Source of the DNA: Planctomycetota bacterium
GTDB taxonomy: Bacteria > Planctomycetota > UBA1135 > UBA2386
Direction: 5' to 3'
NCBI GenBank assembly: GCA_965228735.1
Contig: OZ245838.1
Coordinates: 480,001 to 544,000 of the forward strand
Length of the DNA stretch: 64,000 nucleotides
A program made the position numbers and the translations under genes. Of the stretch, positions 10,230 through 61,911 are shown piece after piece. A model generated the notes under the pieces. That model did not search any database. It saw only the letters and a list, made by a program, of their open reading frames with translations, and was not told where the DNA came from. The number at the start of each line of letters is the position of its first letter. The stretch's first letter is position 1.

Positions 10230-11450
10230 TCAACGAAGGGGCAGCGCTGCAGTCTGCACGCCCTTGCTGGTCCACGCGAAGACGAGCTCTTCGCCATGGC
10301 GTGCCATCTGCGGGAAGCCGTTTCCTCGAGCTGTGCCGCTGTCGGCGATCGTTGTCGCCGTTCCTACGGTTCCATCCGGCGCCACCTGCCGCAGTCGTAT
10401 CGCGCCGCCGCTGGCCGTTGTCGCCAACCAACAGACGAAGATCGAGCCGTTGTCGTGTAGCAGAACCTCGACGCGGCCGGCTGGATTGGAATCGTCGATC
10501 GTGATGGGTTCGCCGAATGTTGCGCCCGCGTCCTTCGACACCGCGAGGAGCACCCGTGGCTCTCCGCCAGCGGCGGTGAACCAGGCCACGGCGACGCGTC
10601 GTTCGACCGCGGCTACCGAAGGACCGTTGACCGGACACCCGTGAATCTTCCACCCGTCCTCGACAACCGGTCGAGGCTCGGTCCAACGACCGTCAACGCG
10701 CCGAACGATCGAGATGTCTCGAACCTCGTCGCCCGATCGATCGCGGTAGGCGACGATGGGGCCGTCCTTCGTCATGGCGGCTGAAGTCTGGCAGCACTCG
10801 CAGACGCGAGCGTCGAGGACGGCGGGGTTCTGCAGCGTGCCGTCACGGAGGACTTCGACGAACCGCAAGGTCATGTCTCCTCGGCCCGAATGCTGGTCAG
10901 CGGGCTTCATCTCACGTCCGTCGAGCCAGACTGCGGAGAGGACGTCGTCTGCGCCGGCGAACAGGGACACGAACCCGTGCTCTGCCTGAACACCGTCGCG
11001 ATGCGGCACCAAGCTCGGGGTCCAGGTAGCGCCACCGTCGAAAGACCGCGAGATCGAGACGTCGTAGTCGAACGTGCCCGATCCGCTCTTGACCAGCCAA
11101 TGGGCCGCCATCGTTCCGTCCGGCAGTGCGATCATCGACGGGAAGTCGGCCCAGTTCACGAACCAGTCCTTGTCCTCCTTGGCGATGATGCGCGGGGCGG
11201 ACCAGTCGTCGCCCTTGCGAACGGTGAATCTCAGGGAGTGTCGTTCCGAGCTGTGTTCGATCCAGCTCAGGAACAGGCGGCCGTCCGGTCCGGTCGTGAG
11301 GTTGGGCTGCCCACTCTGTGGGCCGGCGGGGGAGGGTAGCTCGCGCACCTGTGCGACGAGACCGGATGCGAGCAGTGCAGCGAGAAGCGCATGATGGAGA
11401 GCGCATCGGTGGGTTTGGTCGGTGAAGCGGGTTGTCAGCATCTGCGGCAA
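10230..11450 (-). CDS. Secreted BNR/Asp-box (sialidase-like) beta-propeller protein
   Basis: Asp boxes SFDGGATW and [23 protein letters not shown] and [11 protein letters not shown] motifs. Start uncertain. Confidence 0.8.
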
Positions 11451-14012: not shown

Positions 14013-14312
14013 CTAGGACTTTTTCTTCGCGGTCTGCCCGGCCTCTTCAAGGCCGCTCAGAACTGTTTCGACGCTGGTCTTCGCCGGATCGAAGCTGACG
14101 ATGATGTCGGTCTTGCCGGCTTCCACCTTGGCGCCGGTGACGCCGGGCATGTCGGTCAGCAGGCCACGCACGGTGGCCGCACAACCGCCTCAAGATGGCG
14201 CCTTGGCCAGAACGAGTGCGACATCGACACCATTGGAAGCTTGCTGCATCGAGGTACAAGCGCCCAGGGCAAGGAGGAGCGAAGCTGCGCTCGTCAGGGA
14301 GGATCGTTTCAT
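14013..14312 (-). CDS. HMA-domain lipoprotein, putative selenoprotein (UxxC; Sec at codon 41)
   Basis: MKRSSLTSAASLLLALGAC...VLAKAPS-TGA(14190-14192)-GGCAATVRGLLTDMPGVTGAKVEAGKTDIIVSFDPAKTSVETVLSGLEEAGQTAKKKS-TAG. The HMA fold continues in frame, with a hairpin after the TGA. Confidence 0.8.
14162..14178 (-). promoter_or_regulatory. Putative bacterial SECIS hairpin
   Basis: GGCCAC-CGUGC-GUGGCC stem begins 11 nt after the UGA; GU near the 5' side of the loop. Confidence 0.6.
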
Positions 14313-14382: not shown

Positions 14383-14634
14383 TCACTTCCGTAGCTTGGC
14401 GAGAAAGCGTTCCTTGTCGTCCTCGAACTCCGCGACGCACGGGCGGCAGCAGAACTTGACTTCCTGGTCGCCGTAGACCTTGACGACCGGATCGCCCATC
14501 GATCCGAGCTTGTTGTCGGTGACGATGCAGACGTCGGAAGGGTAGGGTCGAACATTGGCGTGGATCGCTGCGCAGGAGGCGAACAGCGCGGCGAATGCAG
14601 TAATGGCGAGCGCGCGGATTCGGTTGGTCTTCAT
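14383..14634 (-). CDS. YHS/TRASH-like metal-binding lipoprotein
   Basis: Lipobox FASC; YPSDVCIVTDNKLGSMGDP...YGDQEVKFCCRPC. Confidence 0.8.
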   Translation of the reverse strand: MKTNRIRALAITAFAALFASCAAIHANVRPYPSDVCIVTDNKLGSMGDPVVKVYGDQEVKFCCRPCVAEFEDDKERFLAKLRK

Positions 14635-17536
14635 GTGGCGGATTAGAAGCGGAAGACCATTCCGAGGCCATAGCCGTGGTCCGAGTGGTACGATGTCGAC
14701 AGTCCGAGGCGCTGGCTGAGGGCCCAGCCGGAGCCGATCGACCACTCACCGTACGTATTGGTATCGTATTCGAAGGAGCCGAACAGAGACCAGCGGCTGG
14801 TGAGCTGAAGCTCCTTCTCGAGTGCGAGCCGGAAGTCGCCCCGGGAGTCGACGCTCAGATTCGACATCACGAAGTAGGGCAGTCGGTATCTCACGCCGGC
14901 AAAGGCGCGGCTGGTGGTGCCGGCCGTGTCGGCGTAGCGAAATCCCAGTTCGGTGGCGAGGTCTGGGTCGATGTAGCGAGACCAGCCCAGGTCGACTTCG
15001 ACGTCGCGCTCGCCGTGCTCGTGGCCGCCGAACGCGGTCGACAAGCCGATGTCCCAGCGGGCGAAGTAGTCGTTGCGCCCCTTCATCACCATCAGGCGAC
15101 CGGAGGTCATGTGGTTCTGCACGGTGGCATCGAGCAGCAAGTACGCTGGATCGAGCAGTTTGGGATCGATCTTCGGTTCGTGCTCGGGGTCCTGCGAGTA
15201 GCTGAAGACGCGCGCCATTCCGGCGTCCATGTGGTACAGCAGGTGGCAGTGGAAGAACCAGTCGCCGCCTTCTTCGTCGGCGATCCACTCGATTACGCGT
15301 TTGCCCATCGGCGGCACGTCGACGGTGTGCTTGAGGGGCGCCCTGGCGCCTTGGCCGTTGAGCAGGCGGAAGAAGTGCCCGTGCAGGTGTAGCGGGTGGT
15401 GCATCATGGTGTCGTTGATGAGCTCGATCCGTAGCACTTCCCCTCTTTTGACGCGGATGGTGGTCTCCTCACTCAGCGTCTTGTCGTCGAACGACCAGAG
15501 GTAACGCTGCATGTCGCCAGTGAGGCGCATCGTCAGCAGGCGCACCTCGGCTTCGTCCGCCGTGATGGTCGTATCCCGGGTTGCGCGCAGAAGGCCGTAT
15601 GGCGCGAATGGTTGGTCCGATGTCGCGGCTTCTTGAGCGCGCTTCGGCATCAAGGTGGCGAGCCCGGCCTGCAGCATCTCGTCCATCGAGTAGAGTTCCG
15701 CCCTCGGCGGATCCGTGGCGGCTCGCAATGGACCGTCGCCGAGCAGGATCGACGCGTGGCCGCTGCCGTCCTGGGCGGTCGCACGAACTTCGACCGTTGC
15801 GGCTTCGGCCGGCATCGTGACGATGACGTCGTAGGTCTCCGCCATCCCGACCAGGAGTCGTCGCACGTCGGCTGGCTCGACCCGCTGCCCGTCGGCGCCG
15901 ACGATCGTGAGGTCTCCCCCGGCCGCGGCCAGGAAGAAGTACGTCGACGCACCCGCATTGATAAATCGCATCAATACGCGTTCCCCGGGCGCGGCGTCGA
16001 GTGGCAGCCGGCGCTGGCCGTTGGCGAGGAAGGCGTCGTAGCCGACGTCGGACAGATCCATCGCCGGCATGCGGTCGCCTTCGCGCCGGATGTAGTCGCC
16101 GAGCGCGCCTCGTTGGTAGGCGCCCCACAGTGACTGTTGCACGCCCTTCTTGATCGAGTACCACTCGCTACCGCGCATCAGCCAGCGCATCACGGTGGCA
16201 GGATCCTCGTCCGTCCAGTCGCCGAGCACGACGACGTGTTCGCGATCGAACTCGATGTCCGGCGTGCGCGGCTCGATGACGATTGCACCCTGGACGCCGC
16301 GCTGCTCCTGCAGCCCGGTGTGCGAGTGGTACCAATAGGTTCCCGATTGCCGGAGCGTGAACTCGAACGGGTGCTCGCCGCCCGGCGGGATCGGCGGTGT
16401 GGTCAAGTATGGGACACCGTCCATTTCGTTGGGCAAGAGTAGACCGTGCCAGTGGATGGAGGTTTCCTCGGTTGCGAGCCGGTTCTTGACAGTGATGCGG
16501 GCGGTGTCGCCTTCGCGAAAGCGCAGGACTGGACCTGGCGAAGTGCCGTTCACGACGAGAACGGGGACGACGTTGCCCGCCGGTGCGCCTTCGACCTCGC
16601 TTATCACCAACTCGTATTCGACTGTCTTGCTGCCCGTCGATTGAGCATCGGTCGTCGGGGGAGTGTGCGATGAACGGTGTATTCGCGTGACGGCTGGTGG
16701 GATCCTCTGACCCATAGGGAGCCCACCGATGACCCCGAAGAAGAATGACCGCCACCGAATCCCGGACGAGCTGATCGACCAGCTCCTCGCCAACTACGAG
16801 AAGCCAGAAGACCTGACAGGAAAGGACGGCATCCTCAAGGAGCTGACGGCCCGGCTGCTCGGCCGCGCCCTCGAAGGCGAGATGACCGAGCACCTCGGCT
16901 ACGAGAAGCACGCGCCGCGTGCCGAGGGCACGACCAACGCGCGCAACGGATCACGCAGCAAGACGATCAAGGTCGAGGACGGCGAGCTCGAGATCGAGGT
17001 GCCGCGCGATCGCGACAGCACGTTCGAGCCCGAGATCGTCAAGAAGCGCCAGAGACGCTTCGCGGGCTTCGACGAGAAGATCCTGGCGCTCTACGCCCGC
17101 GGCATGACCGTCCGGGACATCCAGGGCCACCTGGAGGAGCTGTACGGCGTCGAGGTTTCGCCGTCGCTGATCTCGAGCGCCACGTCGGCGGTCCACGAAG
17201 ACGTCCTGGCCTGGCAGAGCCGGCCGCTCGAGCCAGTTTACCCGATCGTCTTCCTCGACGCGCTCGTCGTGAAGGTGCGCGATGAAAGCGTCGTCCGCAA
17301 CAAGTCGGTCGACCTGGCGATCGGCGTCACGCTCGACGGCCGTCGCGAAGTCCTCGGGATCTGGATCGAGCAGACGGAGGGCGCCAAGTTCTGGCTGAAG
17401 GTCATGAACGAGCTGAAGACGCGCGGCGTCCAGGACATCCTGATTGCGTGCTGCGATGGCCTGAAGGGCTTCCCAGACGCGATCGAGCACGTGTTCCCGC
17501 AGGCCACCGTGCAGACCTGCATCGTGCACATGATCC

Positions 17537-18961
17537 GGCAAAGCAACATTCGTTCTGTAAGAGCGAGCCCATAGTCGGCGAATCATTTCACTCAGCGTCC
17601 ATGGAGAGATAGCGACGGCCAGTCACCCAGTCCTCGCTGATCTCCATGAGGACCGCGGTGGCGAGCCGGAGAAGAGAGGCGTCGTTGGGGAAGAGCGTCG
17701 CAACGCGGGTGCGGCGCAGGAGCTCCTTGTTGAGGCGCTCGAGCATGTTGGTCGTGCGAAGGCAGCGACGGTGCGTCGCCGGGATCGCGAAGACAGCGAA
17801 GCCGTCGGGGACGTTGTCGCGAGCCCACCGGACAAAGTCGGGAGCGGTTTCCGCGTGATCCTCCAGAAGCCTATCAAGAAGCCGTTCGGCCTCAGGTCGG
17901 TCTGGAGCGTTGAAGACCGCACGAAGTCCACGAGCGATCGACGGGCGCAACGAGACGGTCGGCACTCGTGGAGCGGCGTTGCGTTGCAGGTGGAACTGGC
18001 AGCGTTGCCAAGCGACTCCGGGAAAGCTCGCCGCCAAAGCTTGGCGGAGGCCAGAGTGGTCGTCACTGACGATGAGTCCGAGCCCGTGCAGGCCACGTTC
18101 ACGCAGGCTGTCGAGGAAGTCGCGCCAGTGGACCTCGGCTTCCGAGCGCGACACGCTGACGCCGAGGACCGAGCGATGGCCTGCATCATCGACGCCCGTC
18201 GCGATCAGGACGGCGGCGCTCATGACGGAGCCGGCGTGCCGGACCTTTTCGTAGCGGGCATCGAGGACCAGGTAGCGGCACCGGCCGAGCTCGCGCATCC
18301 GCCACTGCTGCAGCTCGTCGTCGAGTGCCGCGGCGGCCCGGGAGACCTGCTGGGACGACACCTGTACTCCGCAGAGCTCCTCGGTGATCGCGGCGACCTT
18401 GCGGGTCGAGACGCCCTGGACGTACATCTCGGCGACCGCGAGCTTCAGGGCGCGCTCCGAGCGAATCCCGCGTTCGAGTGCCGTCGGATAGAAGCGTTCG
18501 CCGTCGACGGCCTCGCGGACCTGCGGGACGGCGAACTCGATCGCGCCGACGCGAGTCGCCACGGTCTTCGGCTTGAAGCCGTTGGCGTAGCCCCGTCGTG
18601 ACTCGGTACGCTCGTTTGGACCGGCGCCCAGGAACGCGGATCGCTCGATCTTCATGGCCTCGTTCACGAGGACGCGGATCGCGTCCGCGATCCCTCCCAG
18701 ACCCTGCGTTGCGATGGATTCCAAGACGGTGTCGAGCGTGCTACTTTCGGATTGGTGGGTCACTTCGTTCTGCTTTCGTTGTGGTTAACAAAAGCTGAGC
18801 GTCGTGACTCGCCGACTTGAAGCATCCGTCCGCGCCGGCGGTGGTCGTCGCGGTCGGCCTGGCCACTGCACCCAGGGTGCAGCGCCCAGACCGACCGCGA
18901 CGACCACCGCCGACTGCGTCAAGCTGCCTCGGGCGGTTTACAGAACGCATGCTGCACTACC
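17537..18961 (-). mobile_element. IS256-family element (inner, nested)
   Basis: IRs GGCAAAGCAACATTCGTTCTGTAA / GGTAGTGCAGCATGCGTTCTGTAA. Target duplication CATGATCC at 17529-17536 and 18962-18969. Confidence 0.92.
17588..18763 (-). CDS. IS256-family transposase (intact)
   Basis: EMYVQGVSTRKV, LDARYEKVR, SDDHSGL, WQRCQFH, RTTNMLERLNKE. Confidence 0.95.
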   Translation of the reverse strand: MTHQSESSTLDTVLESIATQGLGGIADAIRVLVNEAMKIERSAFLGAGPNERTESRRGYANGFKPKTVATRVGAIEFAVPQVREAVDGERFYPTALERGIRSERALKLAVAEMYVQGVSTRKVAAITEELCGVQVSSQQVSRAAAALDDELQQWRMRELGRCRYLVLDARYEKVRHAGSVMSAAVLIATGVDDAGHRSVLGVSVSRSEAEVHWRDFLDSLRERGLHGLGLIVSDDHSGLRQALAASFPGVAWQRCQFHLQRNAAPRVPTVSLRPSIARGLRAVFNAPDRPEAERLLDRLLEDHAETAPDFVRWARDNVPDGFAVFAIPATHRRCLRTTNMLERLNKELLRRTRVATLFPNDASLLRLATAVLMEISEDWVTGRRYLSMDAE

Positions 18962-19810
18962 CATGATCCGGAACTCGCTGCGCTTCGTCAGCTACAAGGA
19001 TCGCAAGGCCGTCGCCAAGGACCTCAAACCGATCTACACGGCCGCCAACCGTGAGGCCGCCGAGGCAGCGCTCGACGCCTTCGACAAGAAGTGGGGCCGC
19101 CGCTACGAGATGATCACCTCGTCCTGGCGAGCGAACTGGGAGCGCGTCGTGCCGTTCCTCGACTTCCCGCCCGAGGTCCGGCGCGTGATCTACACGACCA
19201 ACCAGATCGAGGCGCTCAACTCGAGCCTGCGCAAGCTGCTGCAGTACCGCGGCCACTTCCCGGACGACAAGTCCGTCACCAAGCTGCTCTACCTCGCGCT
19301 GCGTCGCTTCGAGAAGAAGTGGACGCGTGCGCTCTGGAATTGGAGCGCCGTCCTCGGGCAGCTCGCTATCTTCTTTCAAGGCAGGATTCCTGCCCTGTAA
19401 CCGTGACCTCACTCCGCCAGCTGGTCGCCGATTACACCGTTAGCTGCACACTCCCGTCGTCGGGGCCAACAAGAGAAGCGACAGGATCGCCAGCAGACTT
19501 CGAAGTGCAACGTTGCCCATGTGGTTGTGTGTGCGCCGTCATGGATCGTGGCGGCGCGCGGAGATTCTGCGCCGCGATCGCACCCGCGTCCAGACAACAC
19601 GCCCCGGGACGGTCGCTCGCCTTCCTTCGGTGGCCGGGTCGCATCGGCCGTGACCTACATCCGGCGCCATGACATCGTCGCCATCGAGAGCCGATCCGGA
19701 ACGCCTCCTCGTTCCGAAGGATCGGACTCGCCACGCAGGATGTCTCGGACCCGGCTATGATCGTTGTCGGGAGGGCCCTGCCATCCCCCCGCTCCTGATC
19801 GAGGCCCGAC

Positions 19811-21119: not shown

Positions 21120-21602
21120 ATGAATCTCACTCGGACTCCCCTGTTAGTGCTCACTCTCGTTGGCTGCGCGGCGCCGCCACCGCGACCGGGCACACCGCTT
21201 TCGAGCGACTCCGGTCTTCGCGAGGTCCGCATCGAGGCCCTCGGGCTCGAGTGACTGCCTTGAGTGAAAGCCGTCGAGGACGGCCTCCGGCGCCTGGACG
21301 GCGTCGAACGCATCAAGACCGACCTGCAGCGCAACCTCGTGACGATGACACCGGCGCGTCGTGTCGCGCCGGACCTGGCGTCGATCCCGCGCGTGATCGC
21401 GGAGGCCGGGTTTCGGCCTGGGCGCATGTGGATCACGGCGCACGGCGCGACCGAGGAGTTGGCCGCGGGCCAGCCGGGATTCCGCATCGATGGCTGGCCG
21501 GCAGGGCTGCCGCTCTCTGGTTCGACCGCCCGGGGGCGTCGCAAGATCGAGGGGCAGGTTGTCTACAGCGACGACGAGATACGGCTGCGGTTGCCTGAGT
21601 AG
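21120..21602 (+). CDS. HMA-domain lipoprotein, putative di-selenoprotein (UxxU; Sec at codons 45 and 48)
   Basis: MNLTRTPLLVLTLVGC...EVRIEALGLE-TGA-LP-TGA-VKAVEDGLRRLDGVERIKTDLQRNLVTMTP...IAEAGF. Both TGAs (21252, 21261) occupy the Cys positions of GxxCxxC. Confidence 0.8.
21270..21298 (+). promoter_or_regulatory. Putative SECIS-like hairpins
   Basis: GCCGUC-GAG-GACGGC (21270-21284) and UCCGG-CGC-CUGGA (21286-21298) directly after the UGA pair. Confidence 0.45.
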
Positions 21603-61753: not shown

Positions 61754-61798
61754 TGGAGCGGGTGATCGGGATCGAACCGACGACATTCAGCTTGGGAA
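61754..61798 (-). repeat. att site: 3' half of tRNA-Gly(CCC)
   Basis: Reverse complement TTCCCAAGCTGAATGTCGTCGGTTCGATCCCGATCACCCGCTCCA; no 5' half follows. Confidence 0.9.
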
Positions 61799-61911
61799 CC
61801 GGCTGAGGGCCTTCGGAGCACCGTCGTCACAACCGCTTCAGGTTGCACGTAGTGCGATACCTAGCAGTGGTTTGAGGGCATTGCAAGCGATTGCGAGAGA
61901 GTGCCGGGGAA

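Follow-up and report, generated by a model that had tools for sequence, protein, structure and literature searches.

Selenocysteine (Sec) in the metal loop of an HMA domain is already catalogued, in a P1B ATPase and in the models NF041115 and NF045683. Table 1 of a 2026 review lists 119 families, including a UxxC P-type ATPase (TIGR01525; ABB15669.1), the UxxU protein of NF041115, and a MerT-type protein, and the review calls for more work on what metal-linked selenoproteins do (PMC13188914). Two 'MerP' selenoprotein sequences, with neither motif nor accession, appear in a table of the GOS survey (PMC2398784). In small exported copper proteins, the Cu(I) ligands are Met and His (CopC and CusF) or Cys and His (CueP) (PMC7558416). 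A standalone UxxC HMA lipoprotein is not among the entries of Table 1 of the review (PMC13188914). A literature search that took in parts of PMC9312934, PMC1976440, PMC12013277, and bioRxiv 10.1101/2022.07.06.499078 brought up no description of such a subfamily, a term search of the text and supplement of the BSepDB paper (PMC13326102) found nothing relevant, and Table S9 of PMC4807772 holds no HMA protein among its entries. The subfamily described here is apparently uncatalogued.

The gene in question lies within a 64,000-nucleotide stretch of planctomycete DNA (contig OZ245838.1, positions 480,001 to 544,000), the whole of which is called the window. It occupies positions 14013..14312 of the minus strand and encodes a predicted lipoprotein of 99 residues that has a single HMA domain and a UxxC motif, its frame interrupted by a single in-frame TGA and ended by TAG. 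Translated from 14312 to 14013, it gives a 40-residue leader part with LGAC, and KAPS before the TGA, then a 58-residue domain portion, GGCAATVRGLL...PGV...VSFDP...ETVLSGLEEAG. A first-pass annotation, made from the sequence alone, had read the same LGAC and the same KAPS-TGA-GGCAATVRGLL frame down to the TAG, and the frame is there as described, on a strand that had not been specified. Public annotation cuts the gene at the internal TGA. Met1 is nearly invariant among 30 aligned family members, and a longer frame from an ATG at 14555 was rejected, as it overlaps the upstream TRASH gene and homologs begin at a Met equivalent to 14312. Nor is the TGA an assembly error, since the gene is covered by contigs from four runs of four studies with no differing letter.

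The TGA (14190..14192, minus strand) is codon 41 and aligns with the first Cys of the HMA CxxC motif; the second residue of the resulting UxxC site is Cys44 (14181..14183, minus strand), which is invariant. The earlier claim that Sec replaces the first metal-ligating Cys stands as far as the position goes; that the residue ligates a metal, and that the UxxC site binds soft metals at all, is something we infer. That the TGA of this 99-codon gene is recoded as selenocysteine we regard as almost certain. Recoding itself is very likely in view of the machinery genes present in the host and of a hairpin that is demonstrably under selection, as set out below.

Searched against 61 related genomes, the protein gave 35 matches spread over 24 of them; 33 of the matches carry one in-frame TGA, contrary to what would be expected if close homologs all had Cys. 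The two matches lacking a TGA, one a DUF523-like stretch and the other a domain of a P-type ATPase, were set aside as unrelated. With a profile, matches at E<=1e-5 came from 125 of the class's 251 genomes and included many generic HMA domains; at E<=1e-20 all 65 matches in the 251 genomes carry one TGA (some of these sequences built the profile). Among genes of at least 55 bits in the loci examined, there are 73 distinct TGA genes, from 45 genomes, as against 4 Cys genes, and with loci picked by score this is not an unbiased ratio. The 73 fall into four named families plus seven unlabelled genes, and the homologs' public labels are Planctomycetota. Outside the class, in about 285 genomes of the phylum, no TGA member was found at E<=1e-12, and the best match was a Cys gene in genome G518. 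All 57 members counted have a frame that closes 57 to 64 codons beyond the TGA, and several genomes carry two tandem paralogs with overlapping stop and start.

Among the best 150 matches of a search of 1.84 billion proteins, in which multi-HMA proteins dominate, five are full-length single-domain Cys relatives. Cys versions occur in genomes having selA and tRNA-Sec, so Sec is not indispensable. Conversely, G023 (92% complete, in 290 contigs) holds two TGA members and selA, and neither selB nor tRNA-Sec was found there. In a tree of 72 columns, whose bootstrap was unsettled and which was used only for the family split, the short-linker clade and the scatter of the Cys rows, the family groups together (100/99), separate from HMA domains of the GMT type, and a clade with a short linker, to which the window gene belongs, is supported at 94/94. 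Sec and Cys rows are interspersed, and the well-supported branches require six or more changes across the entire tree, a pattern suggestive of repeated reversion to Cys, as far as so short and rough a tree can tell. P0160 is a full-length family-like lipoprotein with Ser as the first ligand (ISEAC).

Just past the UGA lies a hairpin with the marks of a bacterial SECIS element. Its upper stem-loop (14162..14178, minus strand) has six base pairs and the loop CGUGC, which begins 17 nt past the UGA. The stem, GGCCAC-CGUGC-GUGGCC, had been noticed in the first-pass annotation, starting 11 nt after the UGA, and it is indeed part of the minimum-energy fold, with its first base at that distance. A published model of the bacterial SECIS asks for a loop of 3-9 nt, a stem of 4-16 bp, a G among the first two loop nucleotides, 16-37 nt between UGA and loop, and an energy <= -7.5 kcal/mol (PMC13188914). 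The hairpin agrees with all four constraints of that model: its loop is 5 nt, its stem 6 bp, G is second, the distance is 17 nt, and the energy is -16.8 to -20.2 kcal/mol. By itself the fold energy is unexceptional (-20.2 kcal/mol, z -1.72, with 13 of 200 shuffles as good). Pairing is more telling. When the peptide is held fixed and codons are redrawn from genome usage, all six Watson-Crick pairs appear in 1.1% of 20,000 draws, and the stem together with GT at the loop position follows only 6 of the 134,578 TGA triplets of the genome. A second covariance-model match in the window, at 61793-61840 (E 0.01), has a further TGA in frame and no signs of coding, and was put down to chance.

The comparison of family members gives a clear result. 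Across 30 distinct sequences, 92.8% of cells are paired, with 20 cells changed on both sides; none of 500 shuffles equalled the observed pairing and every slid register scored lower, in a test that relatedness can inflate. Of 24 held-out genes outside that alignment, 22 pair at six of six positions. Taking all TGA genes together, 64 of 73 pair at six of six and all 73 have GT at loop positions 22-23. The compensation can be followed codon by codon. Where position 19 is A, position 27 is T in 35 of 36 genes, and where position 19 is G, position 27 is C in 16 of 21, so that Arg is still written CGT opposite a codon starting with A, even though genome usage per 1000 codons is 7.7 for CGT and 49 for CGC. 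Likewise, the wobble base of Gly tracks the first base of the Ala, Thr, or Ser codon, and the Val codon of the loop is GTG in 56 of 57 genes (the remaining member has GTC). Family members average 5.42 Watson-Crick pairs, compared with 3.16 +/- 0.12 when their codons are redrawn synonymously. Counting from the TGA, the closest orthologs have 8-9 identical codons among the first 11, and 11-16 among the 46 that follow. The four Cys genes have 3, 3, 0, and 4 of the six pairs, and their ATVRG peptide is gone. RNAalifold, run on 31 sequences, returned a different and weak structure (-1.99 kcal/mol) lacking the 6-bp stem; the stem is retained here on the strength of the pair counts, the held-out genes, and the synonymous codon choices. 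The hairpin is under selection. The mRNA hairpin also shapes the protein sequence, the ATVRG helix start being held only while Sec is kept.

The N-terminus is that of a predicted type II signal peptide (residues 1-19; 14256..14312, minus strand), with a basic N-terminus and a hydrophobic stretch ending in the lipobox LGAC (14267-14256) and its Cys19. Cys19 is invariant in 30 of 30 aligned members, a strict script finds the lipobox pattern in 50 of 57 Sec members, and lspA is present in the host genome. A lipid anchor is likely, given the invariant Cys19 and lspA, and the protein has the sequence features of a bacterial lipoprotein: basic N-terminus, hydrophobic stretch, a lipobox with a conserved Cys, and LspA in the genome.

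Residues 29-97 (14022..14228, minus strand) form an HMA domain, as judged from PF00403, which the protein read with Sec matches at 32.4 bits (cut-off 24.8), and from the predicted fold. AlphaFold2, given the 30-sequence alignment, returned a beta-alpha-beta-beta-alpha-beta model with a mean pLDDT of 80.7, and about 90-93 over the HMA domain. The best Foldseek match to the model is MerP (1osd; rmsd 1.6 over 72 columns), followed by domains of ATP7A/B and by CopZ. The canonical HMA loop is GM[TS]CxxC plus a Phe or Tyr in loop 5, a motif visible also in the present alignments. The loop of this family had been called canonical in the first-pass annotation, and it is not: Met at -2 or -3 before the first ligand occurs in 0 of 57 members, Met-Thr is gone, and the aromatic residue of loop 5 is likewise found in 0 of 57, with Glu in its place in 40 and Gln in 11. 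The CxxC spacing is retained despite these changes. With both the Met and the loop-5 aromatic gone, the metal site may behave unlike that of CopZ.

What lies upstream of the gene points to copper. A 70-nt gap separates it from a gene for a small TRASH/YHS-like lipoprotein (14383..14634, minus strand; the Pfam TRASH and YHS matches are weak and under cut-off), and before that is the body of a CopA-type multicopper oxidase (14643..16658, minus strand), which has three Cu-oxidase domains and a weakly CopB-like C-terminus (CopB 20.1 bits, under cut-off). The oxidase is the first gene of a conserved block, and its intact orthologs have 713-727 residues. The order oxidase, TRASH lipoprotein, HMA(Sec) gene is the same in five orthologous loci of four genomes, with 72-74% DNA identity over 2.5-2.7 kb, and three of the five blocks are directly behind CusB/CusA-like genes; these orthologs come from one other genus, on apparent mobile islands, and hence are not independent. 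Elsewhere in the window are CusCBA, CopB, a second oxidase, and P-type ATPases. A paralog of the oxidase-TRASH pair at 4.228 Mb of contig C1 of the host genome (G000) has no HMA(Sec) gene within about 1.8 kb downstream, and a scan for promoters and terminators gave nothing above chance. Also near the block is a BNR-repeat protein (10230-11450, minus strand), and a look-alike lies directly upstream of the oxidase at L158:4839-6032, so the BNR-repeat protein may be a member of the copper cluster.

The association with copper is seen in the short-linker subclade. Copper genes are near 12 of 20 of its loci (4 of 6 in a first set, 8 of 14 in a later one), and near none of 20 loci holding only other family members (0 of 14 and 0 of 6), compared with a host genome background of 26 in 504 stretches; the later 20 loci were chosen once the first 20 had shown the pattern, the counts are not independent because of kin and shared islands, and the stretches covered 4-15 kb. 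Eight of the 20 subclade loci have no copper genes nearby, two of these running into a contig end on the upstream side. The host's second copy of the family sits in a 14 kb copper island (C1:597393-611392) that is 99.99% identical to one in G013 (L104), a different genus, which points to recent transfer.

For the family as a whole, the sole recurring neighbour is a protein of 730-870 residues that belongs to no Pfam family and whose gene immediately precedes the chromosomal copy in eleven or more genomes (G000:C1:3695157-3697418, minus strand; also L084, L103, L106, L111, L164, and L167). The third host copy, at C1:3694905, stands behind it, at a site common to at least ten other genomes. In G004 the same chromosomal site is occupied by a Cys gene, and the two make a natural Sec/Cys pair.

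The copper block of the window is not intact. An IS256-family element (16659..19455), flanked by the 8-bp target duplication GTCGTCGG, lies near the 5' end of the oxidase gene, and a second IS256 (17537-18961) is nested inside it, so that the 2.8 kb pair splits the oxidase gene just after its leader. The detached 5' end, with start codon and hydrophobic leader, is at 19456..19520 (minus strand). Both elements recur across the genome, in about ten near-identical copies, several of them nested likewise. As the first gene of the operon is broken, this copy of the HMA(Sec) gene may be poorly expressed, and perhaps the family consists of real selenoproteins of which this one is silent or nearly so, cut off from its promoter. 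In favour of that reading is the sequence just described, with 2.8 kb between the oxidase 5' end and the rest of the block, and the sequencing runs: the junction end is the same in three of four, and in none of the four does a contig skip or join across the insertion. No RNA run was listed among those holding the sequence, which speaks neither for nor against expression. Against it, the HMA(Sec) gene, its hairpin, and its TRASH neighbour are all intact, and 70 nt precede the gene. IS256 elements can also supply outward promoters. We consider silence of this copy an unlikely but by no means negligible outcome; in any event, it is compatible with a Cu(I) explanation for the intact orthologs.

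That explanation is the one we favour, with somewhat better than even confidence: the protein would be an exported, lipid-anchored Cu(I) chaperone or buffer of the HMA fold, binding the ion through Se and S (Sec41 and Cys44). SelB and tRNA-Sec would recognize the hairpin just past the UGA and insert Sec. Lipidation at Cys19 and cleavage of the leader would follow, so that a tether of 10 residues would hold the domain outside the cytoplasm, where it is predicted to fold like MerP or CopZ, with Sec and Cys on the usual metal loop. A selenol is deprotonated at lower pH than a thiol and binds soft metals more strongly, and the selenolate-thiolate pair might hold a soft ion. For this copy copper is the likeliest ion, since the orthologous genes stand behind those for a multicopper oxidase and a TRASH lipoprotein. 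The copper could be buffered in the envelope or handed on to oxidase, TRASH protein, or Cus pump, a role like that of PcoC/PcoE or CusF, to judge from context.

Another possibility is that no metal is carried, the UxxC site cycling as a selenenylsulfide on an HMA scaffold and serving to reduce or repair proteins of the envelope, of which the Cys-rich TRASH neighbour may be one. Most bacterial UxxC selenoproteins are thought to be redox proteins (PMC13188914). The loss of the HMA Met and loop-5 aromatic in this family would suit such a role, as would the absence of metal genes near most members, and the best structural match is an oxidized MerP, so the site can form a disulfide. The fold, however, is that of HMA and not of thioredoxin, the orthologs of this copy are tied to a copper oxidase block, and no thiol-oxidoreductase partner recurs among the nearest neighbours (an OsmC-like gene is near one locus). 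A redox function seems to us improbable, somewhat more so than silence of the copy.

Less probable still is a MerP-like scavenging role for the selenoprotein, directed at some other soft metal (Hg, Ag, Cd) or at soft metals generally. The best match is MerP in NCBIfam, among single-domain PDB sequences, and in Foldseek alike, and the GOS survey has its two 'MerP' selenoproteins (PMC2398784). The fit to the MerP model is distant, though: 35.9 bits against the TIGR02052 cut-off of 92.55 (best member E 2.4e-14). The affinity of Se for Hg is high. Yet the neighbours are copper genes, and a mercury role in particular found no support, with MerA over cut-off in none of the 61 genomes, MerT not found in the host, and no mer operon context (merT, merA) at the window gene.

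These readings all take the TGA to be translated. The alternative, that the gene is a nonsense pseudogene or a sequencing error, or that the true gene is a 52-residue frame from the GTG of the hairpin loop, owes what appeal it has to the databases. There, 48 of 70 profile matches, the window's own included, are pieces of 52-60 residues starting after the TGA, and GenBank holds members as Cys-less hypothetical proteins of 53 residues starting at the hairpin-loop GTG (MBL8738766.1, MCA8976591.1). A single-protein search of a 5.8-billion collection, confined to proteins of near length, gave no match because the family is stored there as fragments, and a search for related loci gave just two generic ATPase HMA loci. 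The near-constancy of the GTG would also suit a short frame. But one member has GTC, the same TGA is conserved at 30-57% protein identity across 45 genomes, the Cys homologs read straight through the site, and the invariant Cys44 lies upstream of the GTG, leaving the fragment with no Cys; sequencing error is countered by the agreement of all four runs with the assembly. Conservation refutes this reading, to which we give only the slightest probability.

The host can be expected to insert Sec. The first-pass annotation had named missing machinery among the conditions under which its proposal would fall, and all of it is present and over cut-off: selA (454 bits), selB (337), selD (367), and tRNA-Sec (76.6). 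The host's selD itself carries one in-frame TGA, and 59 of 61 relatives have selB as well. Among stop codons TGA is the most frequent, ending 1346 of 2038 long coding frames, which indicates the ordinary table 11 code with TGA a normal stop. That TGA is read genome-wide as Trp, Gly, or Cys has just the open frame in its favour and can be dismissed, given how often TGA is a stop, the absence of internal TGA from selA, selB, and further long housekeeping matches, and a TGA here that aligns with Cys and is followed by a SECIS. With TGA kept in homologs, Sec machinery in the host, and a conserved hairpin, the candidate first proposed from the sequence is very likely a real, well-supported selenoprotein gene.

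It has company. A heuristic scan of the host genome gave about twenty other plausible Sec genes, all of them candidates. One is in the window (21120-21602, plus strand): a lipoprotein (LVGC) with an HMA-like domain and two in-frame TGAs (21252 and 21261) read as U-L-P-U. It reaches 22.7 bits with Pfam HMA, under cut-off, and shows no BLAST pairwise similarity to the HMA(Sec) protein (E 0.96). It is probably the earlier candidate that the first-pass annotation implied in counting the HMA(Sec) gene as its second. On contig C1 of G000, at 583337 and 583577 (plus strand), an exported protein with two GMT-UGGC HMA domains lies between CusA/CusB-like genes; its hairpin is in another register and it falls outside the family in the tree, which suggests a separate gain of Sec. 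There are matches of the same scores in G013. At C1:2123 (minus strand), an HMA-like stretch with U-M-G-T (UxxT) and a hairpin ends a longer frame. Loci L089, L102, and L122 encode GMT-U/C-GAGC-P lipoproteins, with four residues between ligands, beside CusB/CusA-like genes, Sec being present in two of the loci and Cys in one.

Candidates of other kinds include three FG-GAP-like repeat proteins (C1:3065085, plus strand; 5872224 and 406817, minus strand) with U-C-x4-PQF and a shared hairpin loop, AGUUC. Their UC motif does not appear in Table 1 of PMC13188914; FG-GAP/ASPIC Sec candidates have been listed for other planctomycetes (PMC4807772, Table S9), which C1:5458926 fits better than these three do. 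The host gene set also has what we take, by motif recognition, to be likely selenoproteins: Prx-like (3014005, 5285933), a thioredoxin-like lipoprotein (3485980), TlpA-like (4643014), MsrA-like (5365793), AhpD-like (4838102), SelW-like (4024167), UGMC (7165651), and a C-terminal USDCU (625510).

The Cu(I) reading can be taken further. Perhaps Se binds copper directly, in a protein of an operon given over to copper resistance, and perhaps the class gained Sec repeatedly in exported HMA proteins (this family, the GMT-UGGC double-domain protein, and the UxxU lipoprotein 7 kb away), cytoplasmic HMA domains keeping Cys, with Sec an adaptation for soft metals in an oxidizing envelope. We offer this tentatively, as possible rather than probable. 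More firmly, the family makes testable whether Sec serves as metal ligand or as redox catalyst in small bacterial proteins. It is a suitable system, with a soluble domain of 70 residues, natural Sec and Cys versions, and one subclade tied to a copper-oxidase operon. A new family model would also correct the database records of Cys-less 53-residue fragments. The lipoprotein does not found a new kind of system.

How, then, does it stand beside what is known? The protein is far under the cut-offs of the curated models for these known selenoproteins, and the best E-values of the 30 members are weak. It shares with the Sec P1B ATPase a UxxC motif, presumably at the same position, as we take that of the ATPase to sit in its N-terminal HMA domain. 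In the ATPase, however, the HMA domain is fused to a membrane enzyme and faces the cytoplasm, whereas the window protein is a single domain with a predicted lipid anchor outside, and ATPase-type HMA domains in this lineage carry Cys. NF041115 (UxxU_metal_bind, 'putative mercuric reductase') is likewise a small HMA-like selenoprotein, weakly matched by 30 of 30 members, but it is a 74-position model of a UxxU protein with two Sec, and the UxxC window protein scores 34 bits against a cut-off of 95. NF045683, a MerT/CopZ fusion-like heavy metal transport selenoprotein, also combines Sec with a CopZ-like domain, though in a 235-position fusion to a MerT-like part, unlike the 99-residue product here (16.8 bits against 375). 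MerP (TIGR02052; PDB 1osd, 1afi) is an exported single HMA domain and the best fold match, differing in its plain leader, its GMT, and its loop-5 aromatic, where the window protein has a lipobox, lacks both loop features, and is accompanied by no mer genes. The two 'MerP' selenoproteins of the GOS survey, known by their listing alone, may or may not belong to the present subfamily (PMC2398784). PcoC/CopC, PcoE, CusF, and CueP resemble it in proposed role, as small exported proteins beside a multicopper oxidase or Cus pump (PMC7558416); their folds are different, so the likeness is a functional analogy and not one of membership. What sets the subfamily apart is, by prediction, an exported, lipid-anchored single domain with a remodelled loop, and, for this copy, a place in a conserved copper-oxidase operon as well.
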